Shown piece after piece: positions 1,198-30,801 of a DNA stretch of 64,000 bases. The notes under the pieces are model-generated. The model was not told the origin of the DNA, ran no database searches, and saw only the letters and a list, made by a program, of their open reading frames with translations. The stretch is taken from NCBI GenBank assembly GCA_963664245.1, contig OY760934.1:232242-296241 (forward strand), in the 5' to 3' direction. A program made the translations under genes and the position numbers. This DNA is from Bacteroidales bacterium (GTDB lineage Bacteria; Bacteroidota; Bacteroidia; Bacteroidales; GCA-2711565). How positions within the stretch are numbered: the stretch's first letter is position 1; the number at the start of each line of letters is the position of its first letter.

Positions 1198-2303
1198 TGA
1201 GAAAAATAGTAATAATCGTTTTTTTATTCCCCCTGTTTTATCTGTCGGCGCAAACAGATGATTGCTGGACGATCTTCAGGGGTAACCAGGAATTGACTGG
1301 TTATACGGATGTAAAACTGGCTAAAAATTATTCGTTGGCCTGGGATTTTAAAACCGAAGATGCCATTAAATCTTCGGCGGTGGTTTGCGATGGGCGGATT
1401 TTTATTGGCTCCAACGATGGTTTTGTTTACGCCTTGGACCTGGAGGGAAAGCTCCACTGGAAATTCAATGCTGAAACTTCGGTGGAAGCCCCGCCATTAA
1501 TTTTGGATGGGGTGGTTTATTTTGGTTCGCTCGAAGGAATGCTTTTTGCCGTGAATGCTTCGGACGGAACCCTGAAATGGAAGTATGCCACCGAAGGGCA
1601 AATTTCGGGTTCTTCCTCCTGGATTTATTCGCCCGATAAAAAAAGCAAATGGATCATTACCGGAAGCTATGATTTTTGCCTTCATTGTGTGGATGCCAAA
1701 ACAGGGATTTTAATCTGGAAGTACGAGGCCGATAACTACATCAACGGGGCTCCGGCTACCGATGGGAAAATTTGTTTGTTTGGCGGCTGCGACGGCTTTT
1801 TGCACAAAGTGGATGTTGGAACCGGAAAAGCTTCGGATAAAATTGATGTTGGAACCTATATTGCCTCCTCGGCGGCTATTTACGCAGATAAAGCGTTTTA
1901 CGGCAATTATGACGGCAATTTTTATGTCACCGATTTGAAAACCGAAAAAACGCTTTGGGAGCATAAGGAACTGGGCTCTTTTTTAGGTTCGCCCGCAGTA
2001 GCCAAAGGAAAAGTGATTATCGGTTCGCAAAACCGGAATTTATATTGTTTTGATGAGAGCTCCGGCGAAATCCTTTGGATCTTTAAAAGTATACGGAAAA
2101 TTGAAGGTTCGCCAGTGATTGCAAACAATAAAGTGGTGCTTGGGGCAGGCGACGGACGCATCTATATTCTTGACCTGGAGACTGGCGAGAAATTGTGGCA
2201 GTACGAAATTGGAGCACCCATTTTCGGGACACCTGCGGTAATTGCCGATAAAATTATTATTGGAGCCCACGACGGTCGCATTTATTGTTTTAAGAAGAAC
2301 TAA
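1194..2303 (+). CDS. Secreted PQQ-like beta-propeller repeat protein
   Basis: Signal peptide MMRKIVIIVFLFPLFYLSAQ. Repeated blades of the type DGFVYALDLEGKLHWKF, DGTLKWKY, DGRIYILDLETGEKLWQY. Start overlaps the upstream stop (ATGA). Confidence 0.75.
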   Translation: MMRKIVIIVFLFPLFYLSAQTDDCWTIFRGNQELTGYTDVKLAKNYSLAWDFKTEDAIKSSAVVCDGRIFIGSNDGFVYALDLEGKLHWKFNAETSVEAPPLILDGVVYFGSLEGMLFAVNASDGTLKWKYATEGQISGSSSWIYSPDKKSKWIITGSYDFCLHCVDAKTGILIWKYEADNYINGAPATDGKICLFGGCDGFLHKVDVGTGKASDKIDVGTYIASSAAIYADKAFYGNYDGNFYVTDLKTEKTLWEHKELGSFLGSPAVAKGKVIIGSQNRNLYCFDESSGEILWIFKSIRKIEGSPVIANNKVVLGAGDGRIYILDLETGEKLWQYEIGAPIFGTPAVIADKIIIGAHDGRIYCFKKN

Positions 2304-2326
2304 ATCTTAATATAAAGGAATTATAA

Positions 2327-3073
2327 ATGAGTAAGAAATTCAATAATATATCTCAGCTTGATTGTCAAAATATATATAAGATAATTATTGAAAACTCAGA
2401 CAGACATTACAAAATTGCAAATGAATTAGCAATTAATGAAGATTATTATGGGATTGGAATTTCTCATTTAATTCTTTCAGCAGAAGAATTAGCCAAAGCT
2501 CTAATTATTTTTTTAGATGGCGAAGGTTTGCATGTTAGAAAAGTTGCTGGAATCAATAAGTTTTTCCATAATCATGAGCCAAGACATCACTTTTCAAATC
2601 TTTTTGTTATTATGCATTTTATGTTAAAACACCTTATGAGTTTTGCAAAAAGAATTAATAACTTAATTCATAATCCTGATTTACACAATACCGCAACCAG
2701 TATTGAAAAAGCTATAATTAATCAAAATGAGGATGGATTAGATAAATTAGTTGAAGAATTTATAAATACTAAATTGAAATATAAGGCAGAATTACTTGGA
2801 GTTTATTCAGACTTTTGGAATATAGCTGATAGAACAAAACAACGAGGATTTTATGTTGATTATGTAGATGGTTTATACTCACCTTCCAGCTTCTCAAAAT
2901 CAGACTATGATTTTGTAAAAGAGGTTGTGAATTCATTTAGACGAGAATGTAAGAAATTAATAAACAAAGTAAAAAATATAACAGAAACTGATAAAAAACA
3001 AATAATCAAGTTTGTTAATAAAGACAAAAGTATATACGACACAATTGAATTAATGATTAATGTTAAATTATAG
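2327..3073 (+). CDS. Hypothetical protein, AbiV/HEPN-like (putative abortive-infection family)
   Basis: 248 aa with no signal peptide. The blocks GISHLILSAEELAKALI and KQRGFYVDYVDG resemble, from memory, conserved blocks of AbiV-family HEPN proteins. AT-rich single-gene unit between GC-richer genes. Not verified by a profile search. Confidence 0.4.
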   Translation: MSKKFNNISQLDCQNIYKIIIENSDRHYKIANELAINEDYYGIGISHLILSAEELAKALIIFLDGEGLHVRKVAGINKFFHNHEPRHHFSNLFVIMHFMLKHLMSFAKRINNLIHNPDLHNTATSIEKAIINQNEDGLDKLVEEFINTKLKYKAELLGVYSDFWNIADRTKQRGFYVDYVDGLYSPSSFSKSDYDFVKEVVNSFRRECKKLINKVKNITETDKKQIIKFVNKDKSIYDTIELMINVKL

Positions 3074-3154
3074 TATTTGTTTTCTTAGGAAAAATTGATC
3101 AAACTTCTTAGCCAAATAAATTACTACAAGTTGAATGTTCAAAACTGAATTTAA

Positions 3155-9134: not shown

Positions 9135-9298
9135 GGGGTGCAAAAATATTTTGGTCAGCTTTAGCTGAATGTGATCCAACGTTTTATGGTATGGTGTCGT
9201 GGGGGATTATGGGGCGAAAACGTATCCGTTTACACTGACTTTTTTTTACGAGCCACAAACGCTTAAAAACCGCTGAAACCCGCATGCACTATACCATT
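9135..9298. repeat. Conserved 3' cassette-flank element, copy A (split by the IS; continues at 10999-11010)
   Basis: Shares ordered blocks with 21164-21324. These include GTCAGCTTTAGCTGAATGTGATCCAACG (9154-9181), which is 27/28 identical to 21175-21202. Confidence 0.6.
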
Positions 9299-10998
9299 TG
9301 TGTCTGTTGCACAAAGGCATTAAAATAAATAAATTGCAATTTGGTTAATACTTTTTTTCATCCCTAATAATTCAGGTTTTGATTACTTTATGCATTTAAT
9401 TTCAATAAAAAAGGCTTGAATAGCATTATATGAAGCGAAAAAACCAGCAATTTGCTCATATATATAGGCCATTTGAGCCTTTACCTTGGTCTCGTACTTA
9501 TTGACATTATATTTTAGTAATTTCTTCAAGTTATAAGCACAGGCAGCCATGTGAACCACTTTATTGGCTTGGGCAATACCCAAAGTATTGATTTTTCGTA
9601 ATCCCAGGTATTGAGTAAGGTTTCCCCAAGCTGGTTCTACTGTTGATTGCCGTTTACCCTTCATTTTTCTGCCCCATTTACTATTTACCCTCTCATTATT
9701 CCGTATGTATTCATCCAAATAGGCTGTTATTGCGATCTTTTTTTCATGAGACTTTCCGATACATACACTTCTGCTGGGGCAATCTTTACAATCGCTTCGC
9801 CGGGTATAGTAATGGTTTTGTAAAGAGTCATTGCTATGCTTTTGCTTTTTAAATATTACCCTTTTGCCTTGTGGGCATAACCAATAGTTTTGTTCCTTTA
9901 TAAAAGTAAAACCCTCTGGGCCACCTTTAAACGTTCCATGTTTTGGAATGTAACTAAGTATATGTTCTTGTTCCAGAAACTGATAATTATCTCCGCTACT
10001 ATAACCAGCATCAGCTAGAATATTAGTCCATAACAGCCCTAATCTCCATAAACGCTTATGGGTTCTCTTAACGATATCTTGTAAGTTCTTGCTGTCCACT
10101 CTATCGGCATGATAAGCCTGTACATCACTTATTACATTGAAGGCCGTATCTACGGTAATGTTCCCGTGATAGTTTAGCTTACGGGATTTTCCCGGCTTTA
10201 CACTAATGCGAGCATCAGGATCGGTAGGACTATAATGGGTTTTGTTACTGGTGTATTTAGAACGCTTAGAATTAGCCCCTTGCCGCGTGTTTTGGGTTGT
10301 TTTCCATTTTTTCTGCCGTGCTGCTATTTCATTAAGTTCATCTTTATTTGCAGAAACCTGTCTTTGTGCCAGGTTTGCTTTATTCTTTTTTGCTTTTCGT
10401 ATTGGTTGTTGGTCTCCATTGGAGATAGCCCTTATTCTGGTTAAATATTCTTCCAGCTCTTCTTCTGGTACTTTTAGCTCTAAGCTATCCATACTTGCAT
10501 TGGCTTTAATAGGAGCAGAATCGGTTGCTTGGGTATGCCCACTCACAAGCCCACTATCAACACATAAAGCAAATATCTTTGTAAAAACAGTTTCAAAGAC
10601 ACCCTCTGGAAATAACTGGCGAGTACGGCTAACAGTACTATGCCACGGTAAGGGTTCATCTATATTATATCCAAGAAAATACAAAATATCTAAACGCATG
10701 GAGCAATGTGCTATCAACTTACGATCACTTACAATATTTTCTAAATAGCCAACAATGCATAATTTAAAAAAGACACGCGGGTCTATACTTTTTTGTCCAC
10801 AACCACCATAATATGGCGCAGTTTGTTTGAGGAGAAAATCCAAATTCAGGATCGACTTTAACCTACGGTAAAAGTTCTGCTCTGGCACAACCTGGCTTAG
10901 TTGGAAACTGACAAATAGTTTTTCTTGGTATTCTTTATTCCCTTGCATGACGTAAGTTAATAATATTTTGCCTATTTCTTTGTTGTGCAACAGTTACA
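9299..10998 (-). mobile_element. IS1182-like insertion sequence (~1.7 kb)
   Basis: Terminal inverted repeats TGTGTCTGTTGCACAA (9299-9314) and TTGTGCAACAGTTACA (10983-10998), with an 11-nt perfect core CTGTTGCACAA. Single transposase ORF. TGTGT occurs at 9299-9303 and 10999-11003, which is either a 5-bp target duplication or part of the IR. Confidence 0.75.
9383..10948 (-). CDS. IS1182/IS5-type DDE transposase
   Basis: N-terminal MQGNKEYQEKLFVSFQLSQVVPEQNFYRRLK ... DPRVFFKLCIVGYLENI, typical of IS1182-group transposases. DDE region around ADAGYSSGDNY. The ATG at 10948 is preferred over the TTG at 10990 in the ORF track. Confidence 0.85.
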   Translation of the reverse strand: MQGNKEYQEKLFVSFQLSQVVPEQNFYRRLKSILNLDFLLKQTAPYYGGCGQKSIDPRVFFKLCIVGYLENIVSDRKLIAHCSMRLDILYFLGYNIDEPLPWHSTVSRTRQLFPEGVFETVFTKIFALCVDSGLVSGHTQATDSAPIKANASMDSLELKVPEEELEEYLTRIRAISNGDQQPIRKAKKNKANLAQRQVSANKDELNEIAARQKKWKTTQNTRQGANSKRSKYTSNKTHYSPTDPDARISVKPGKSRKLNYHGNITVDTAFNVISDVQAYHADRVDSKNLQDIVKRTHKRLWRLGLLWTNILADAGYSSGDNYQFLEQEHILSYIPKHGTFKGGPEGFTFIKEQNYWLCPQGKRVIFKKQKHSNDSLQNHYYTRRSDCKDCPSRSVCIGKSHEKKIAITAYLDEYIRNNERVNSKWGRKMKGKRQSTVEPAWGNLTQYLGLRKINTLGIAQANKVVHMAACAYNLKKLLKYNVNKYETKVKAQMAYIYEQIAGFFASYNAIQAFFIEIKCIK

Positions 10999-11001
10999 TG
11001 T

Positions 11002-11016
11002 GTTGGCTGCTGGGTT
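11002..11016. repeat. Cassette-1 inverted repeat, 3' arm
   Basis: GTTGGCTGCTGGGTT ends 1 nt before the stop codon (11017-11019). Its partner is the rc of 12373-12387, GTTGGCTGCAAGTTT (12/15 identical, first 9 perfect). Confidence 0.55.
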
Positions 11017-12345
11017 TTATAGTAATTGTTTTAATTCTTCCCTTATCACCGAAGGTTTTTCTGCTGTCGCATCGATAATAAATCCTTTATCATCAATCAA
11101 AATATATCTCGGAAAAGCTTTTGCATTATAATCATCATTAAATTTATGTGTTGCCCCTTCAGTACAAAGATTAATGGTATTTAATTCAAATTCTTTTATT
11201 TTACTTAACCATTTTTCTTTGTCATTATCAGCTGATATCGATACAAAAATGATATTTTCATTCTTCAATTCATCAGAAAGCTTTTTCATTTCGGGCATCT
11301 CTCTTATGCAAGGTCCACAAAATGAGCTCCAACAATCTATGTATACAAATTTACCCAGAAAGTCCGAAAGCTTAACAATATTTCCGTTGTTATCTATTAT
11401 CTCAAATTCAGGAGCCTTTTTTCCTGTTGCAAGCTTGCTCCAATTATTATATTTCCCTGTCAGGTAATCTTTTTGTCCTTTGTCTTTCATAATTGCCAGA
11501 AAGTCATCGCATATACTATCAATTCCATCAATACCATTAAGATTTATTTGACTATTAATCTCTCTGAGCATTATATCTTCGAATATTTCTCTTTCAGTAA
11601 ATATTTCCTTTGCAAGAGTGTATTTGTCATTTAATTCTTTTGCCCTGAAATCTAAATAAGATATTAAAGTTGACTTGTAATCATTGAATTTGAAGAGTTC
11701 TTTATTGTTAGTTTCTATCTGGTCAGTGAATTTGTAATAATTATCAGGAAGTTCAGGTTTAATTTTAGTGAGCATCTCATAAAAACCTGGATACCCAAAT
11801 TGTTGGTTAATCCAAAAGTAATTGATAAGCAGATTTTCTGTGTTGTAGAAAGAATTAGATATTTTGGGATTCAATTTTTGGTAATCATTCAAATGTTTTA
11901 TTCTAATCTGCTTAACACTATCTATTTTTTCTATAAATTTTTCAGGCTCAGAAGAAAACAGAGCAATATCAATTTTTCTTGGGTCGTCAAATCCTAAATC
12001 CATTATTAAGTTCATTTTCTTATATAAAAACTCACTTTCTTCAAAACCAAGCCCGGAAAATTGAATTTGTTTAGACCTTTCATAATCTATAAAAATGCTA
12101 TCACCAAATTCTACAAAAAGAGGAATCCACTCATCTAATTTCAAGTCAATGTAATTTTCTGCTCTAATATTAAAACTAAATCTACCATTAACAATAGTAT
12201 CCATGTAAGTTGAATCAGCTGTTTTTACTTCTGCAATTGCTACTTCAGAATTCCTCAAAAAACCAACAATCTTGATTGTGCGATTGTCTTTATTACTGCA
12301 TCCCAAAATCAAGATACATAAGCTTAAAATCAATAATTTTCTCAT
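11017..12345 (-). CDS. Thioredoxin-fold (TlpA/ResA-like) lipoprotein
   Basis: Lipoprotein signal MRKLLILSLCILILGCS. C-terminal thioredoxin fold with CxxC motif WSSFCGPC. AT-rich. Confidence 0.75.
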   Translation of the reverse strand: MRKLLILSLCILILGCSNKDNRTIKIVGFLRNSEVAIAEVKTADSTYMDTIVNGRFSFNIRAENYIDLKLDEWIPLFVEFGDSIFIDYERSKQIQFSGLGFEESEFLYKKMNLIMDLGFDDPRKIDIALFSSEPEKFIEKIDSVKQIRIKHLNDYQKLNPKISNSFYNTENLLINYFWINQQFGYPGFYEMLTKIKPELPDNYYKFTDQIETNNKELFKFNDYKSTLISYLDFRAKELNDKYTLAKEIFTEREIFEDIMLREINSQINLNGIDGIDSICDDFLAIMKDKGQKDYLTGKYNNWSKLATGKKAPEFEIIDNNGNIVKLSDFLGKFVYIDCWSSFCGPCIREMPEMKKLSDELKNENIIFVSISADNDKEKWLSKIKEFELNTINLCTEGATHKFNDDYNAKAFPRYILIDDKGFIIDATAEKPSVIREELKQLL

Positions 12346-12372: not shown

Positions 12373-12387
12373 AAACTTGCAGCCAAC
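12373..12387. repeat. Cassette-1 inverted repeat, 5' arm
   Basis: aaacttgcagccaac is the rc of GTTGGCTGCAAGTTT. Lies 28 nt upstream of the ATG at 12345. Confidence 0.55.
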
Positions 12388-12520
12388 TTATATATAAACC
12401 AGTGTGTGTTATTTTACTTATATATTTCAATAATTCTCCTGGTGAATTAATCAAAAATTATCAACCCAAATGCTGGGGAGAAGCATTTTCCACAAAATCA
12501 AATATAAGAAATTTTATTAA
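12383..12520 (-). promoter_or_regulatory. Promoter + 5' leader module L1
   Basis: On the minus strand there is a -7 box TATATTTG (12499-12506). Next comes the hairpin AAATGCT-TCTCCCC-AGCATTT (12468-12488). The proximal 49 nt (12383-12431) are about 41/49 identical to 22171-22220. Confidence 0.55.
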
Positions 12521-14090: not shown

Positions 14091-14801
14091 TTAAATCGGT
14101 TTGAAATCTTTCTTTGTTACGCCACAAATCGGGCACATCCAATCGTCGGGGATGTCTTCAAATTCGGTTCCGGGAGAAATGCCCGAGTCGGGATCCCCAA
14201 CATCTGGATCGTAAATCCACCCGCAAACAATACATTGATAAAGTTGTTTTTCGCCGGAGGACTTTTTTTTATCTTCAAATTTTTTTTCTTCCCGGTCGCC
14301 AAGGTAGGTTGGGGCGTTTTTAGGAGATACCCCCTTAATGACTTTTCGGTAGTGATCGTAGGTCAGTGGGGGGGCATCATCATCCAACAAATCATAATCA
14401 ATCAATTCGCCGATGAATAATAGGTGTGTGCCTACGTCTATGGTGTCGGTTACTTTACATTCGAACCAGGCAATGCATTTGTCGGTAATAATGGGCGAAC
14501 CAGTTTCCCCTGTTTTGTAGTTGATATTTTCAAATTTATTGATCTCTTTACCGCTCTTAAATCCCCAGGGGCCTAAGAATTCAAGGTCAACATCTTGTTG
14601 TAGCACTGAAATACTAAAGGCTTTGCTTTTCTCGATGACCCCAGTGGTTTGGTTGTTTTTGTTGGTGGCAATGGCAAATTTGGGCGGGGTGGCCGTAACC
14701 TGGAACACCGTGTTTGAAACGTGCCCGGTTTTTTCTTCGCCATGGGCTGATGATACAATGTAAAGTCCGTAAGTAAGTTTGAAAAAAGCGTCGATGTTCA
14801 T
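14091..14801 (-). CDS. Flavin reductase-like domain fused to a C-terminal rubredoxin
   Basis: The C-terminus [12 protein letters not shown] ... DDWMCPICG carries two CxxC pairs of the rubredoxin type. The N-terminal ~160 aa are flavin reductase-like. Confidence 0.8.
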
Positions 14802-14867
14802 GTTGCTGATGTTTGATTTTTACTAAGATAATCCTTTTTGATTAAAAGGAAGGGAAAGTTTCAGTAA

Positions 14868-19358: not shown

Positions 19359-21029
19359 CTACGAACGTTTAATCGTTGTGTTTGGTTCTGTGTGTTCTAT
19401 TATTTCGCATGCTTTTTTTGTTGCAATCTTAAAGTTATCGAAGATTAAATCAACGGGAATTAATTTGTTTAAATGATATTTTATTAATTCTTCTTTAATC
19501 TCAGAGTTCACGCCTGATAATAAAATCGTTATGTTTTTATTTCGTAATATTTTTACGGCATCCTTTAAATTATGCAATCCGGTTTGATCAATAAATGAAA
19601 CATGCCGCATCCGTATAATCAAGACTTTGCATGTTAATCCGATTTCCTCAATTGCTTCGGAATACCTTCTGGCGGAAGCGAAGAATAAGGGGCCGCTAAT
19701 CTCATAAATTTTGACCATATCTGGTAGGTCGGAATAATTTTCTATCAGGTCGTTATCTACAATACAATCAATTCTTTTCTCGCTAATATCAGACATTCTT
19801 TTCATGAAGAGTACTGCTGATAAGAGTACGCCGATTTCGATGGCTAAGGTTAAATCAAAGAACACTGTTATAAAAAATGTTGTGAGCAAAATAAGTACGT
19901 CAAAGTACGAACCTTTCAGAATAGACACGAAAGACCGCCACCCACTCATATTATAAGCGACAATGATTAAAATTCCGGCCAGGCAAGACATGGGGATCAG
20001 TTTTGCCCAGCGTCCGAGAAACAGCATTATCAGGAGCAATGTGATTGCGTGTACCATGCCCGATATTGGAGTCCTTCCCCCGTTTTTAACATTTGTTGCT
20101 GTACGTGCAATTGCGCCTGTAGCAGGAATTCCTCCAAAAAAAGGAGTGATAATATTTGCAATTCCCTGTGCAATCAGCTCTGTATTTGAACGATGTTTCC
20201 CGCTAATCATCCCGTCGGCTACAACTGCAGAAAGTAAAGATTCAATTCCTCCCAGCAAAGCAATGGTAATTGCCGGTGCAAAATAGTTTTGTAATTCATT
20301 AAGTTTTACGCTAGGGAAAACAAAACTAAAATTATTGGGGATCGAACCAAAGAATGTTTCGACCGTCGCAACATCAAGTTTGAAAATATAAACCACCAGT
20401 GTTATCGCCACAATAGCTAAAAAAGAGCCCGGGATTTTAGACGTGATCTTTTTTGAAAAAACGGTGATTAAAATGGTAACCATGGTTATGGCAAAAGCGA
20501 TCCAGTTTATGTGATTGATATTTGAAAAATAAATCATCCATTTCTCATAAAATCCGGAAGGGATTTTGCTTATGGGTAAGCCCAAAGCATCTTTTATTTG
20601 TGTTGAAAAAATTACGAGGGCAATACCACTTGTGAAACCAACGACCAATGAATGGGGAAAAAACTTTAATAATGTTCCCAGTTTGAATAATCCAAAAACA
20701 ATTAGTATAAGGCCGGCAAGTATGGTTGAAATTATTAGTCCGTCAATGCCATAGTGTTCAACAATACCATATACAATTACAATAAAGGCACCTGTTGGCC
20801 CTCCAATTTGTACACGGCTCCCTCCCAAAAACGAAATCAAAAAGCCTGCAACTATTGCGGTTATCAATCCTTTTTCGGGCGATACCCCTGATGCAACTGC
20901 AAACGCAATTGCCAATGGCAAAGCTACAATTCCGACAACAATACCTGATAAAACGTCATTTGTTACCTGCTTTTTATCCAAGCCTGTTTTGAGAAGGCTG
21001 AAAAATTTTGGCCTGAAAATACTATTCAT
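19359..21029 (-). CDS. SulP-family anion transporter with C-terminal STAS domain
   Basis: 556 aa with a typical SulP N-terminus (LSGIVVGIVALPLAIAFA) and a C-terminal STAS-like domain. Confidence 0.9.
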   Translation of the reverse strand: MNSIFRPKFFSLLKTGLDKKQVTNDVLSGIVVGIVALPLAIAFAVASGVSPEKGLITAIVAGFLISFLGGSRVQIGGPTGAFIVIVYGIVEHYGIDGLIISTILAGLILIVFGLFKLGTLLKFFPHSLVVGFTSGIALVIFSTQIKDALGLPISKIPSGFYEKWMIYFSNINHINWIAFAITMVTILITVFSKKITSKIPGSFLAIVAITLVVYIFKLDVATVETFFGSIPNNFSFVFPSVKLNELQNYFAPAITIALLGGIESLLSAVVADGMISGKHRSNTELIAQGIANIITPFFGGIPATGAIARTATNVKNGGRTPISGMVHAITLLLIMLFLGRWAKLIPMSCLAGILIIVAYNMSGWRSFVSILKGSYFDVLILLTTFFITVFFDLTLAIEIGVLLSAVLFMKRMSDISEKRIDCIVDNDLIENYSDLPDMVKIYEISGPLFFASARRYSEAIEEIGLTCKVLIIRMRHVSFIDQTGLHNLKDAVKILRNKNITILLSGVNSEIKEELIKYHLNKLIPVDLIFDNFKIATKKACEIIEHTEPNTTIKRS

Positions 21030-21058: not shown

Positions 21059-21163
21059 ATCTAAAATCCGCTCGTTATTCGCTGGAGGGTTGTTTTTTTG
21101 TTCCTAAAATCGTGTTTATTTTGGCTTCGGTCGTTTTTGGAGCGACAGGATGTTATGCAGCAA

Positions 21164-21324
21164 GGGGGCAAAAAGTCAGCTTTAGCTGAATGTGATTCAA
21201 CGGATGGCGGTATGAAATCGTTGGGGATTGCGTGCGATTTACTATCAAGGTACATGGAAAGTTGAAGCGGGCTAAAAACCTTCGCATACCATGAAACCCT
21301 TATTGGCTATATTGTGTGTTGGCA
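21164..21324. repeat. Conserved 3' cassette-flank element, copy B (intact)
   Basis: Blocks GGGGGCAAAAA, GTCAGCTTTAGCTGAATGTGATTCAACG (21175-21202), GGTATG, TCGTTGGGGATT, GCTAAAAACC, CGCATACCAT and TGTGTTGGC occur in the same order as in copy A. Confidence 0.6.
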
Positions 21325-21335: not shown

Positions 21336-22160
21336 TTAATCAAATCTATATAAAAACGTCCGATAAACTTCCCCTTTATGGTTTAAAGTCACTTCTTTAA
21401 TCAATCTACCCAGTGAGTCATAATCGTACATTATTGTATTGTTTTTAACACTAAAAGATAAGTTTTCAGTCAAAGGGTATTCGTTACTTTCAATTGATTC
21501 TTTGATTAATCGTCCATTCTCGTTATAAACAAATTTTTTCTCCTCTTTTAGTTTACCACGAATCCGAGTAATGTTTTTTAATTTTCCTGTATCATCATAG
21601 GAGTATTTTCCAATCCAGGTAGTGTCGCCGTTTTCAATATCAAATTCTTTGTTAATCAGTTCGTCATTATATAAATAAGCTCTCCAAATCTCATACTTGT
21701 CACCTTGCATATTTGAACCTCTATCAATTAATTCTTTGAATATCTTACCGCTCTCATTATAGAATTTAATCTGTTCAAATTTAACTGTATCCAAATCGAC
21801 TGCTGTTACTAAAGTCCTGTATATTCCAATCAGGTTTTTATTGTCATTATAAATCATTAAATCTCTCCACCCAATCTCACAATTATACATACGACAGTTA
21901 TACTTTTCAATTAAATTACCTACCGAATCATAGAAATATTTTATCCTGTATTCATGACCAATCTGTTCGATAAGTTGTCCCGATATATTAAAGAATTTAT
22001 AATTAATAGCATTTTCAGGAGTCATGTTGCTACCAGAATACTTTATTTCTCTTATATCGTAATCTATTTGTTCACTAAAATCTGGAACATACAGAACTTG
22101 TCTCGAACAACTAAATTGTATCAGAATCAAGATTGCTAATATTCTTTGCAGTGTGCTCAT
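21336..22160 (-). CDS. Lipoprotein with short YD/RHS-like repeats
   Basis: Signal MSTLQRILAILILIQFSCS from the ATG at 22160; the track start at 22190 is a TTG. Repeats YDSVGNLIEKY, YDDTGKLKNI, YNENGRLIKES, YDSLGRLIKEV. AT-rich. Confidence 0.55.
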   Translation of the reverse strand: MSTLQRILAILILIQFSCSRQVLYVPDFSEQIDYDIREIKYSGSNMTPENAINYKFFNISGQLIEQIGHEYRIKYFYDSVGNLIEKYNCRMYNCEIGWRDLMIYNDNKNLIGIYRTLVTAVDLDTVKFEQIKFYNESGKIFKELIDRGSNMQGDKYEIWRAYLYNDELINKEFDIENGDTTWIGKYSYDDTGKLKNITRIRGKLKEEKKFVYNENGRLIKESIESNEYPLTENLSFSVKNNTIMYDYDSLGRLIKEVTLNHKGEVYRTFLYRFD

Positions 22161-22192
22161 AGTATTAATACCAACGTATGTACAAACCAATA
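22161..22192. repeat. Cassette-2 inverted repeat, 5' arm
   Basis: The rc reads TATTGGTT-N9-GTTGGTATTAATACT and directly abuts the ATG. The inner 15-mer is 13/15 identical and the outer 8-mer 7/8 identical to the 3' arm. Confidence 0.6.
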
Positions 22193-22310
22193 TGTGTTAT
22201 TTTTCTTATGTCTTTTCAATATCATTATTTATTCCGCAGCTTTGTACGAGAACAAGTCTTAATGCCGGGGGAGAAGCATTATTTCAAATATAAAAAATAA
22301 ACCATTATGA
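22171..22310 (-). promoter_or_regulatory. Promoter + 5' leader module L2
   Basis: On the minus strand there is a -7 box TATATTTG (22285-22292). The hairpin is AATGC-TTCTCCCCCG-GCATT (22261-22280). The proximal 50 nt are homologous to L1. Confidence 0.55.
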
Positions 22311-27023: not shown

Positions 27024-27068
27024 ACCTATTAAAAATTAAAACCATTGTTCATAATATAATTATCCCTA

Positions 27069-27110
27069 ATGCCGGGGAGAAGCATCAAGTCAAATATATA
27101 AAATAAATCA
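27069..27110 (-). promoter_or_regulatory. Promoter + leader hairpin module L3
   Basis: On the minus strand there is a -7 box TATATTTG (27091-27098) followed by ATGC-TTCTCCCCG-GCAT (27069-27085). This is the same core as in L1 and L2. Confidence 0.5.
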
Positions 27111-27210: not shown

Positions 27211-27595
27211 CTATCCATTCATCGAAATCAAAAATTCCTCGTTAGTTTGAGTGAACATGATCTTGTCTTTCAGGAACTCCATGGCTTCCAGCGGGTTCAT
27301 GTCGGCCAGATGGTTTCGTAGTACCCAAATGCGTTGCAGCGATTCTTTATCAAGCAGCAAATCTTCGCGGCGTGTACTTGATGCCACCAAATCGATAGCC
27401 GGGTAAACGCGTTTGTTCGATAATTTGCGATCCAACTGAAGCTCCATGTTGCCGGTACCTTTAAATTCTTCGAAGATTACTTCATCCATTTTAGAGCCGG
27501 TGTCGATCAGGACCGTAGCGATGATGGTTAATGAACCACCGTTTTCAATTTTACGGGCTGCACCAAAGAAACGTTTTGGTTTTTGAAGGGCGTTG
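27211..27595 (-). pseudogene. rho: Truncated duplicate of the rho 3' end (last ~128 codons)
   Basis: Co-linear with 29230-29614 at a constant offset of 2,019 nt. The 92-aa ORF differs from Rho at one residue. It has no 5' part. Confidence 0.85.
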
Positions 27596-29229: not shown

Positions 29230-30801
29230 TTATCCATTCATCGAGATTAAAAATTCCTCGTTGGTTTGAGTGAACCTGATTTTGTCTTTCAGGAATTCCA
29301 TGGCTTCCAGCGGGTTCATGTCGGCCAAGTGGTTCCGCAGTACCCAAATACGTTGCAGCGATTCTTTATCAAGCAGCAAATCTTCGCGGCGTGTACTTGA
29401 TGCCACCAAATCGATAGCCGGGTAAACACGTTTGTTCGATAATTTGCGATCCAACTGAAGCTCCATATTGCCTGTACCTTTAAATTCTTCGAAGATTACT
29501 TCATCCATTTTAGAACCGGTGTCGATCAGGGCAGTAGCGATAATGGTCAATGAACCGCCGTTTTCGATTTTACGGGCTGCGCCAAAGAAACGTTTTGGTT
29601 TTTGAAGGGCATTGGCTTCCACCCCACCGGATAATACTTTGCCCGATGCCGGAGAAACAGTGTTGTAAGCCCTTGCCAAACGGGTGATAGAGTCGAGCAG
29701 GATAACTACGTCGTGGCCGCACTCGGTCATGCGTTTTGCTTTTTCCAGCACAATGTTTGCAATTTTTACGTGGCGTTCTGCCGGTTCATCAAAAGTAGAT
29801 GAAATGACTTCGGCTTTTACGCTACGTTCCATGTCTGTTACCTCTTCCGGGCGTTCATCAATTAACAAAATAATTAAATAGGCTTCGGGATGGTTGGCAG
29901 CAATGGCGTTGGCAACTTCTTTTAAAAGAACCGTTTTACCGGTTTTTGGTTGAGCCACAATCAACCCACGTTGTCCTTTTCCAATAGGCGTAAACAAGTC
30001 GATTACACGGGTTGAAATGGTTTCTTGTGGATGTCCGGTTAACGAAAGTTTTTCGTCCGGGAACAGGGGCGTTAAGAAATCGAAAGGAATACGGTCGCGT
30101 ACTTCTTCCGGCCTGCGCCCGTTGATTAACTCAACTTTAATTAACGGAAAATATTTTTCGGTTTCTTTTGGTGGACGAATGGTCCCTCTCACGGTATCAC
30201 CGGTTTTTAATCCGAATAATTTAATTTGTGATTGAGAAACGTAAATGTCGTCGGGAGAGTTCAGGTAATTGTAATCTGATGAACGAAGGAAACCATAGCC
30301 ATCCTGCATGATTTCAAGAACGCCCTCGCTAGACACAATGCCTTCTAGCTCTGAAAGAAAATCATCGCGTTTAACTTCGTATTCTGATTTCGGGTTGTCC
30401 TGTTTTGGAGTCTCTTTTTTCTCAGGAATTTCAATATTTTCGTTACGTTCTATCCTGCTTTTTTTAGGTTTGACTTCTTGCTCAGTATCAGGATTGGTTG
30501 AAAAAACAGGTTCGTCAATAGAAGGTTCTTCTGGTTCTTTCTTTTTGATCGGTTCCACTTTTTCGGGCTCACGCGGAATACGTGCACGCCTTCCCCGGCT
30601 TGGTTTTTTAATTTCTTTTTTCCCTTTTTCTTTTTCTTCTTTTTCTAGCTCTTCATTGGTAGGATTTAACGCCTGATGATCTAAAATTTTGTAGATAAGA
30701 TCTTGCTTTAATAATTTATCAACTTTAGGAATGTTAAGGCTTTTAGCTATCTCACGCAGTTCCGAAACCAATTTGCCATTAAGTTCAATAATGTCGTACA
30801 T
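29230..30801 (-). CDS. rho: Transcription termination factor Rho (with K/E/P-rich N-terminal insertion)
   Basis: N-terminus [25 protein letters not shown], Walker [13 protein letters not shown], conserved C-terminal ATPase region. 523 aa. Confidence 0.95.

Follow-up and report, generated by a model that had tools for sequence, protein, structure and literature searches.

Introduction

In the sedentary chromosomal integrons of Vibrio, every cassette open reading frame (ORF) is followed at its 3' end by an imperfect palindrome, the attC site (Vibrio cholerae repeat, VCR), which exhibits AAC...GTT boxes, an R' box of the type GTTRRRY and a crossover point at G↓TT (the arrow marks crossovers throughout); the structure of such sites is kept but not their sequence, the strand complementary to the ORF folds better, sites are alike within a lineage, and there is one site per ORF in co-oriented arrays beside a tyrosine recombinase. 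The sites described here share these properties. They were reached from an element that occurs in two copies, A and B, within 64,000 nt of a Bacteroidales genome (contig OY760934.1; this whole stretch is referred to as the window), and our analysis indicates that each copy is probably the downstream junction of a mobile gene cassette: an attC-like site of ~125 nt together with a 28-nt sequence (the 28-mer) as the recipient side of the crossover.

An earlier reading of the window (the original prediction) had offered three options for this element, namely a structured RNA, an attC-like folded DNA site, or a repeat resembling repetitive extragenic palindromes (REP) or miniature inverted-repeat transposable elements (MITE). 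The folded DNA site found support, whilst the RNA and the REP/MITE options did not: Rfam yielded no match, neither terminal inverted repeats nor target-site duplications were seen, and the copies covary where a REP or MITE would give near-identical ones.

The element and its 28-mer

The 28-mer GTCAGCTTTAGCTGAATGTGATYCAACG is found twice on the + strand of the window, at 9154–9181 (copy A) and 21175–21202 (copy B), with an identity of 27/28. No third copy exists in the 64-kb window at up to 3 mismatches and 100 shuffles gave 0 matches: the near-invariant 28-mer of the original prediction is thus real, with 0 copies expected by chance. The same is true of the ordered blocks reported along with it (GGGG(T)GCAAAAA, GGTATG, TCGTKGGGGATT, GCT(T)AAAAACC and CGCAT..ATACCAT), which follow one another in this order in both copies, and of a mini-hairpin, TCAGC-TTTA-GCTGA, present in copy A (9155–9168) as well as in copy B (21176–21189) and termed hairpin b below. 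A long-range stem had also been proposed for both copies. In copy A it stood, 9186–9196 being paired with 9287–9297 by the covariance model described below and by predicted DNA folding, whilst copy B proved degenerate: GGTATG and CATACC are present, but 4–5 pairs of the model are broken, and the last ~27 nt resemble a partly duplicated 3' arm. That the element holds no conserved ORF was also correct, and a protein-coding element was rejected: the 64-aa ORF over copy B (21061–21255, - strand) has no Pfam family match and is not kept in copy A.

The cassette genes of the window lie on the - strand, and on this gene strand the R' boxes that had been proposed, GTTGGAT in A and GTTGAAT in B, fit GTTRRRY; the crossover maps there. 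In copy A the box occupies 9169–9180 (ATGTGATCCAAC on the + strand, G↓TTGGATCACAT on the gene strand) and in copy B the gene strand reads G↓TTGAATCACAT. Site lengths lie, as claimed, in the attC range of ~57–141 nt, with 129 nt for site A (without the insertion sequence described below) and 126 nt for site B. Beyond the 28-mer the two copies share short extensions at 9135–9153 (GGGGTGCAAAAATATTTTG, a remnant of hairpin a of the unit introduced below) and 21164–21174 (GGGGGCAAAAA). Conservation past the R' box, held in the original prediction against an attC site, is real; it continues there because the 28-mer forms the recipient or docking side of the crossover and the start of a recurrent ORF-less cassette. 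The 28-mer had also been treated as part of the hairpin site itself, which had to be abandoned: 0/17 sites in the two arrays picked by their recombinase have a 28-mer after them.

A family of folded sites

A 20-mer taken from the 28-mer and scanned against one genome per species matched four times each in Hanstruepera marina and H. flava, three times in a mis-binned metagenome-assembled genome (MAG) and once in a Marinilabiliales MAG; two chance matches in coding sequence served as controls. Scanning metagenomes with a 22-mer gave 33 further loci, many at contig ends. The homologues in Bacteroidota for which the original prediction had suggested a search were thus found in Hanstruepera, the Marinilabiliales MAG and metagenomes (individual loci are denoted by L and a number).

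On the strand that corresponds to the + strand of the window, which is antisense to the genes (bottom strand), a site consists of CAAC(G), a spacer of 5–6 nt, a stem of 16–20 bp, a variable middle with 1–2 small hairpins, the returning arm, 2–3 nt and GTTG. A simple scanner identified many sites in related loci, only copy A in the window and almost none in shuffled sequence. Most sites are 117–135 nt long, with a minority from 65 up to ~195 nt. The AAC and GTT triplets are invariant in 54/54 aligned sites, and the arms are paired in 88% of cells, as opposed to 69% in shuffled alignments and 27–53% with partners slid, although this percentage is partly circular, given that the scanner picking the sites requires a helix. 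This bias does not touch the slide control, the variety of compensatory changes or those loci that were selected through the 28-mer alone. Compensatory changes were seen in 16/18 stem pairs over the 54 sites: the covariation that the original prediction had proposed to look for supports the stem. Two G·U (in DNA G·T) positions are conserved on the bottom strand, in 43/54 and 44/54 sites, whilst no consistent extrahelical G or T was found on that strand among the aligned sites, about one third of which exhibit a one-base bulge. The R'' box reads on the cassette strand AGCCAAC in A (6/7 of RYYYAAC) and TGCCAAC in B (5/7), and NNNCAAC in the family; with the neighbouring R' box usually only CAAC/GTTG pairs, and the start of its own cassette is complementary to it over 9–13 bp in A and B.

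Thirty-two sites, all from other genomes and none from the window, went into a covariance model (R1). It gave two matches in the 64 kb, both on the + strand and both with E-values that are rough, at 9175–9304 (48.9 bits, E 2.4e-8) and 21196–21323 (39.0 bits, E 3e-6), whilst the rest of the window had no match even at E up to 10. Across related loci totalling 310 kb there were 78 matches, on one strand per locus, and none in the two control loci. Folding with DNA parameters predicted the antisense strand to be the more stable one in 46/59 sites, by a mean of 1.7 kcal/mol (p 1.5e-6).

The ORF-less unit and its junctions

To the left of ..ATYCAAC lies a conserved, ORF-less 'unit' of 170–290 nt, whereas the right side differs from locus to locus: a wide range of partners adjoins the 28-mer across 45 loci. 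Its gene-strand sequence is G↓TTGRATCACAT plus the hairpin TCAGC-TAAA-GCTGA. Complete units also hold an inverted copy further upstream, GTTGRATCACAT, and its pairing with ATGTGATYCAAC gives a 12-bp stem (P1) that encloses hairpins a and b; P1 covaries (GTTGAAT/ATTCAAC, GTTGGAT/ATCCAAC, GATGTAT/ATACATC), hairpin a has four covarying stem versions and hairpin b is invariant. Owing to its cassette-type ends and its own long hairpin site, the unit is best described as an ORF-less cassette. In L011/L044, L046 and L028 the unit is truncated at about the same point as in the window, where the partner strand of P1 is absent and only ~40 nt of the unit remain. As a separate observation, two units were seen within one array in the metagenomic contigs L034 (7875–7896 and ~11331–11353, the second copy differing slightly in the 28-mer region) and L024 (202–223 and ~1280), and hence the unit recurs like a repeated ORF-less cassette. 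In L017 (1128–1149) and L038 (13045–13066) the 28-mer runs into the left part of the unit in reverse-complement form, the segment between the boxes being flipped; such sequences suggest that both inverted copies of the R box may be recombination-active. A group IIC-attC intron, a retron, a bridge RNA and an omega-RNA were also considered for the unit and rejected, given the lack of a constant protein gene and the cassette-type boundaries.

The junctions locate the exchange point. Near-identical units end ..CCAAC↓ and continue into a recombinase leader (L029, L037), into one cassette (L042, L043, L045) or into another (L009), and L011 and L044 combine a common chromosomal flank with different cassettes. 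Both cassettes of the window are preceded by a left half-site, TGGTTTRTAYATAMG↓, and similar half-sites abut the 28-mer directly in the apparently empty loci L028, L023 and L040.

Cassette arrays and the adjoining recombinase

Sites A and B are solitary in the window, unlike those in arrays found elsewhere. In H. flava (L002; JALJCW01) a gene for a 393-aa tyrosine recombinase is followed by the unit on the same strand and then by three ORFs, each ending in a site. Aestuariivivens sediminis (L049; JAKMCO010000001, 471788–492975) exhibits nine R1 sites after nine ORFs downstream of the recombinase, and Pontimicrobium sp. SW4 (L048; CP157199, 3374540–3395721) eight, seven of them downstream of its recombinase; a further array (L008) has five sites, and in all three (L008, L048, L049) the sites lie on a single strand. 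The cassette ORFs downstream of the recombinase in Pontimicrobium and Aestuariivivens are small and co-oriented, and their products include GNAT, beta-lactamase-family, glyoxalase, HTH and nSTAND proteins. A tyrosine recombinase adjoins the 28-mer or arrays in 9 loci, and this recombinase family is widespread in Flavobacteriaceae. Two arrangements occur. The recombinase gene of Hanstruepera, Pontimicrobium and Aestuariivivens points the same way as the cassettes, with the insertion point immediately 3' of its stop codon; the one in L023, L029, L037 and L042 is divergent from the cassettes.

The most serious alternative is that these are ordinary integron attC sites, the window holding two single-cassette remnants of the kind termed CALIN or SALIN (clusters of attC sites, or single attC sites, lacking integron-integrases) with a canonical IntI elsewhere. 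The invariant AAC/GTT, a gene-strand R' box (GTTGRAT) that fits GTTRRRY, and an imperfect palindrome with unpaired spacer, mostly 117–135 nt long and placed after an ORF in co-oriented arrays, are all as such a reading would have it, and the 'integron integrase' profile TIGR02249 is among the two best NCBIfam matches for 4/5 recombinases. However, 5/5 recombinases score only 194–220 bits against its cutoff of 265, and the match breaks near profile position 180, before the IntI-specific region. The XerA-type model NF040815 is passed by 2/5, XerA is the best solved relative, and of the ~60 residues at 186–245 of VchIntIA, the Vibrio integron integrase, where the IntI-specific domain is presumed to lie, no more than 17 have a counterpart. 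With TIGR02249 below cutoff, XerA closest and this region mostly unmatched, the array recombinases are, as judged from sequence, Xer-like enzymes without the IntI-defining domain. The sites differ as well: the two conserved G·T wobbles stand in place of consistent extrahelical G or T bases, the gene-strand R'' box, NNNCAAC in the family, follows RYYYAAC only in part, the spacer is asymmetric (5–6 vs 2–3 nt, and thereby more so than in aadA-type sites), and cassette start and site end pair over up to 9–13 bp. IntI is defined by its additional domain (PMC9668308, PMC4889954). The host clade, moreover, is reported to be almost devoid of integrons: for Bacteroidetes, IntegronFinder 2.0 reported a single complete integron (Salinibacter) and otherwise only elements of the integrase-only kind (PMC9024848), and a 2024 preprint lists Bacteroidota among the clades found without integrons (bioRxiv 2024.07.02.601686), whilst a review lists the phylum among those with integrons, with no detail given (PMC8618304). 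We thus consider ordinary integron sites unlikely. The attC-like reading of the original prediction keeps its R' box and crossover and gains arrays beside a tyrosine recombinase and cassette exchange between strains. An intI gene is, as had been stated, absent from the window, and the recombinase adjoining the arrays elsewhere is no canonical IntI either.

Cassette exchange at site B

The clearest indication of recombination comes from two assemblies (L050 and L051) that are ~98% identical to the window and were found via an identical Rho protein. Both align with the window on either side of site B, but not across it: the place of the RHS cassette is taken by a pair of small ORFs with an intact site, which lies at 19388–19517 in L050 and scores 72.9 bits with R1. 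The flanks of this replacement are as in the window, reading ..TGGTTTATACATACG↓TTG (..ATACATACG↓TTG) upstream and ..CCG↓TTGGATCACATTCAGCTAAAGCTGACTTTTTGCCCCC downstream, and the 28-mer of copy B together with the flank up to the SulP transporter gene is conserved in both strains. A different cassette between the same junctions points to recombination of DNA and not to an RNA.

In the window, cassette gene B (21336–22160, - strand; likely start ATG 22160, with a mechanical ORF to 22190) encodes an RHS-repeat protein (Pfam RHS_repeat), for which no homologue was detectable among the fetched loci, the RHS-repeat cassette of L010 included. The whole cassette runs from 22174 to 21201 on the - strand, between G↓TTGG and the R' box. 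The left half of its docking site (22175–22189, - strand; TGGTTTGTACATACG) stands immediately before G↓TTGG and is kept in L050 as TGGTTTATACATACG↓TTG; with the right half added the docking site is TGGTTTATACATACG↓TTGGATCACATTCAGCTAAAGCTGAC. The start of the cassette, TTGGTATTAATAC, forms an 11/13 inverted repeat with GTACTAATGCCAA at the site. Complementarity between the start of a cassette and the end of its own site, here as in cassette A, is expected if both ends meet in an excised circle. Site B itself (21198–21323, + strand) is degenerate: much of the stem is lost, part of the 3' arm looks duplicated, and the predicted fold of the site shows no asymmetry between the two strands (-8.7 vs -8.6 kcal/mol).

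The exchange also bears on the proposal that the element acts as a structured non-coding RNA, either a small RNA derived from the 3' untranslated region of the cassette gene or an antisense RNA on the + strand. Strong covariation of the stem, two G·U positions that exist on the + strand only, the greater stability of that strand relative to its complement, and, again on that strand, a TAnnTTTG box just 5' of the 28-mer in some variants of the unit (TAACTTTG, TACCTTTG) would all suit an RNA. This box, however, is missing from both copies in the window and from several unit variants, and Rfam 15 gave no match in the window at the gathering score and, at E up to 10, chance-level hits only, none of them on the element; in 12 related loci it gave a single tRNA and nothing else. 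Also against an RNA stand one site per ORF in arrays beside a recombinase, a boundary between constant and variable sequence exactly at the AAC/GTT box, and whole cassettes swapped at those points between 98%-identical strains, and no general terminator-like feature follows the element. Nothing observed requires a role as RNA, which we regard as quite improbable.

Site A and its insertion sequence

The original prediction had placed both copies directly 3' of cassette genes. This holds for copy B, which lies 12 nt past the stop codon of the RHS-repeat ORF and ~130 nt upstream of the SulP gene. Copy A has a convergent gene for an FtsX-like permease on one side and a DDE transposase on the other, and the ORF adjoining it on that side (9383–10990) turned out to be the transposase of an IS1182-family insertion sequence (IS). 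This 1.7-kb IS (9299–10998, - strand; Pfam DDE_Tnp_1_6, DUF772 and DDE_Tnp_1) has 16-bp inverted repeats at 9299–9314 and 10983–10998 (TGTGTCTGTTGCACAA / TGTAACTGTTGCACAA) and is inserted at the 3' end of site A. The major part of the site (9177–9298, + strand, read on the bottom strand) comprises CAAC, a 5-nt spacer, the stem ATGGTATGGTGTCG.., a variable middle and the 3' arm ..CACTATACCAT, and is cut off by the IS; the displaced distal end lies at 10999–11008 (+ strand; TGTGTTGGCT), exhibits the bottom-strand GTTG box (AGCCAAC on the gene strand) and fits the family consensus ..TATAC-NNT-GTTGG. The terminal block TGTGTTGGC, absent next to copy A, is thereby found beyond the IS at 10999–11007, and removal of the IS in silico restores it, the junction then reading ..CACTATACCATT↓TGTGTTGGCTGC.. 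(here the arrow marks the point of removal). Without the IS, site A is predicted to fold with -19.3 kcal/mol on the bottom strand and -12.3 kcal/mol on the top strand. Sites A and B both look immobilised now, A being split by the IS and B by decay of its stem.

Since the IS sits inside copy A, the real cassette gene of A is the Redoxin-like ORF at 11017–12345 (- strand), encoding a 442-aa Redoxin/AhpC-TSA/thioredoxin-like protein (Pfam) whose stop codon is 8 nt from the GTTGGCT of site A. Cassette A as a whole extends from 12386 to 9180 on the - strand, that is from the 5' crossover G↓TTGG to the R' box, and a 9-bp inverted repeat connects its start (TTGGCTGC) with GCAGCCAA at the site. The left half of the docking site (12387–12401, - strand; TGGTTTATATATAAG) lies immediately before the 5' crossover and resembles those of site B, L050 and the empty sites L028, L023 and L040.

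The IS gives some colour to the idea that the element is a selfish repeat of REP or MITE type, or a piece of the neighbouring IS: several copies exist in several genomes, assemblies break at the unit, copy A abuts the IS, and the core of the IS inverted repeats, CTGTTGCACAA, resembles the GTTG..CAAC end of the sites, a likeness that may reflect a target preference. Against this, the sequences differ whilst pairing is kept, the reverse of what young copies of a MITE would show; the element was not seen to have terminal inverted repeats or target duplications; copy B has no IS nearby; and the sites are tied to the 3' ends of ORFs and to a tyrosine recombinase, not a transposase. For copy A, an IS end or a MITE was rejected, given that the IS has inverted repeats of its own and the element continues beyond it. 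A selfish repeat is hence very improbable. Even less can be said for the hairpins being transcription terminators of the cassette genes, a negligible prospect: the element does follow stop codons directly, and in copy B hairpin b is followed on the gene strand by CTTTTTGCCC, flagged by a terminator scan, but the large hairpin is followed there by AAACCGTTGAAT with no T run, copy A has no terminator-like site, and the T run after hairpin b is missing in copy A and in the units of other genomes.

The surroundings of site A are variable. Of 5 window proteins near the site, 4 have no exact database record, and the region was reached in a related strain via a 96%-identical FtsX-like homologue (L052, ERZ21869602), where the DNA is unrelated. 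In place of the window sequence beyond 9018, positions 11212–19222 of L052 have content that includes a CarboxypepD_reg protein, two transposases and a group II intron reverse transcriptase, with one attC-like site at 14704–14833; the stretch past the FtsX-like gene is a hot spot of variation between strains. Elsewhere, the window contains at 2292–3149 an extra segment of ~860 nt with an ORF (2327–3073, 248 aa) that is missing from this 94%-identical strain at L052 5972–5996.

Leaders upstream of the cassettes

Both cassettes are preceded by a promoter-like leader of ~140 nt with a common layout: the box TATATTTG, ~10 nt and a hairpin ATGCTTCTCCCC(N)GCAT. The box fits the -7 promoter consensus of Bacteroidetes, TAnnTTTG. 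Before cassette A the leader (12470–12506, - strand) has the box at 12506–12499 and the hairpin ATGCTTCTCCCCAGCAT at 12486–12470; before cassette B (22262–22292, - strand) these lie at 22292–22285 and 22279–22262. In both cases the leader is outside the cassette, upstream of the 5' junction, which speaks against the earlier view of cassettes carrying their own promoters; it would occupy the position expected of a platform promoter. L050 lacks the ~141-nt leader at site B, which a direct repeat, GAAAAATAA, borders in the window.

A third occurrence of the leader, at ~27060–27110 (- strand), precedes an unrelated transglutaminase-like operon. A secondary BLAST match showed that a 384-nt stretch of the 3' end of rho is duplicated (27212–27595 and 29231–29614, ~95% identity), the rho-derived duplicate lying ~2 kb away, upstream of the same operon.

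Proposed mechanism

We propose that a Xer-like tyrosine recombinase, encoded elsewhere in the genome, would recognise the folded antisense (bottom) strand of the site and exchange strands at the conserved AAC/GTT box, such that a cassette could be inserted or excised between the left half-site TGGTTTRTAYATAMG↓ and the 28-mer. The bottom strand would fold as a single-stranded DNA substrate, with the two G·T positions perhaps marking it for the enzyme in place of extrahelical bases, and the 28-mer together with the left half-site would serve as an attI-like docking partner, either double-stranded or as a hairpin. The window would then represent two docking sites 12 kb apart, each holding one cassette and exhibiting an upstream promoter-like leader.

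Several points weigh against this mechanism, in addition to the circular component of the pairing percentage. No recombinase is encoded in the 64-kb window, nor in 60 kb of sequence from related strains, and the case for recombination comes from sequence comparison. Cassette exchange in the lineage of the window was seen at site B; near site A, the sequence downstream of the FtsX-like gene in L052 is entirely different. Stem P1 cannot form in the window with only ~40 nt of the unit kept, and the role of the 28-mer is uncertain: it is either a docking half-site or the mere start of a selfish ORF-less cassette. Finally, an antisense RNA would account equally well for the strand asymmetry and for the conserved G·T/G·U positions.

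Comparison with other cassette systems

The likeness to integrons extends beyond the VCR-type sites. As in ORF-less integron cassettes, the unit has cassette boundaries and no ORF. The 28-mer and left half-site behave like the simple site of attI, with an L-like box and a spacer ahead of G↓TT and an R box, but unlike attI the unit forms a 12-bp stem around two hairpins, is present in four copies per Hanstruepera genome, lies inside arrays, and has truncated copies at chromosomal sites far from any recombinase; we know of no description of such within-array and scattered placement for attI. Like CALIN elements and single attC sites in the categories of IntegronFinder, the cassettes of the window have sites but no recombinase within 64 kb, whilst unlike CALIN the sites are 12 kb apart with housekeeping-type genes between them, and each has a promoter-like leader besides the two halves of its junction.

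Integrons with an 'inverted' integrase exist in the Treponema denticola group, which resembles the co-oriented recombinase found here. The pdif modules of Acinetobacter plasmids are alike in that the recombinase is of Xer type and its sites bracket genes. The dif and pdif sites are, however, double-stranded sites of 28 bp in which a 6-bp spacer separates two 11-bp arms of partial dyad symmetry, whereas the 28-mer, on inspection, lacks such an 11-6-11 layout and shows no more than TCAGC/GCTGA on either side of a 4-nt loop, and the cassette-borne site is a covarying hairpin of ~125 nt. In archaeal integrons attI lies immediately downstream of intI (PMC9668308), much as the insertion point lies just 3' of the recombinase stop codon in Hanstruepera, Pontimicrobium and Aestuariivivens. 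Both the Treponema and the archaeal integrons nonetheless have a bona fide IntI with the additional domain, and the divergent arrangement is a further difference. The system described here thus works like an integron but fails the defining protein feature of the family and one feature of its sites.

Implications

A description of such arrays in Flavobacteriia or Bacteroidota was not found in the literature searched, which was covered in part and is no proof of novelty. We see about even chances that Bacteroidota, at least Flavobacteriaceae and Marinilabiliales-like members, possess a widespread integron-like system of gene capture that has not been found described in this literature, with a XerA-like recombinase without the IntI domain, sites of its own (~125 nt, two G·T positions), a hairpin unit with a 28-nt docking start, and scattered docking sites with their own promoters. 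The cassette products seen so far include GNAT acetyltransferases, beta-lactamase-family, glyoxalase-family and RHS-repeat proteins and an nSTAND NTPase. For the window, this reading explains two strain-variable genes and gives exact boundaries for their cassettes. If it is true, integron-like cassette capture would have arisen more than once, or would be older and broader than the IntI family. If the arrays are active, the extra domain of IntI would not be needed for recombining folded hairpin sites, surveys keyed on that domain would miss such platforms, and a large, ecologically important phylum would have a cassette-capture machinery of its own.

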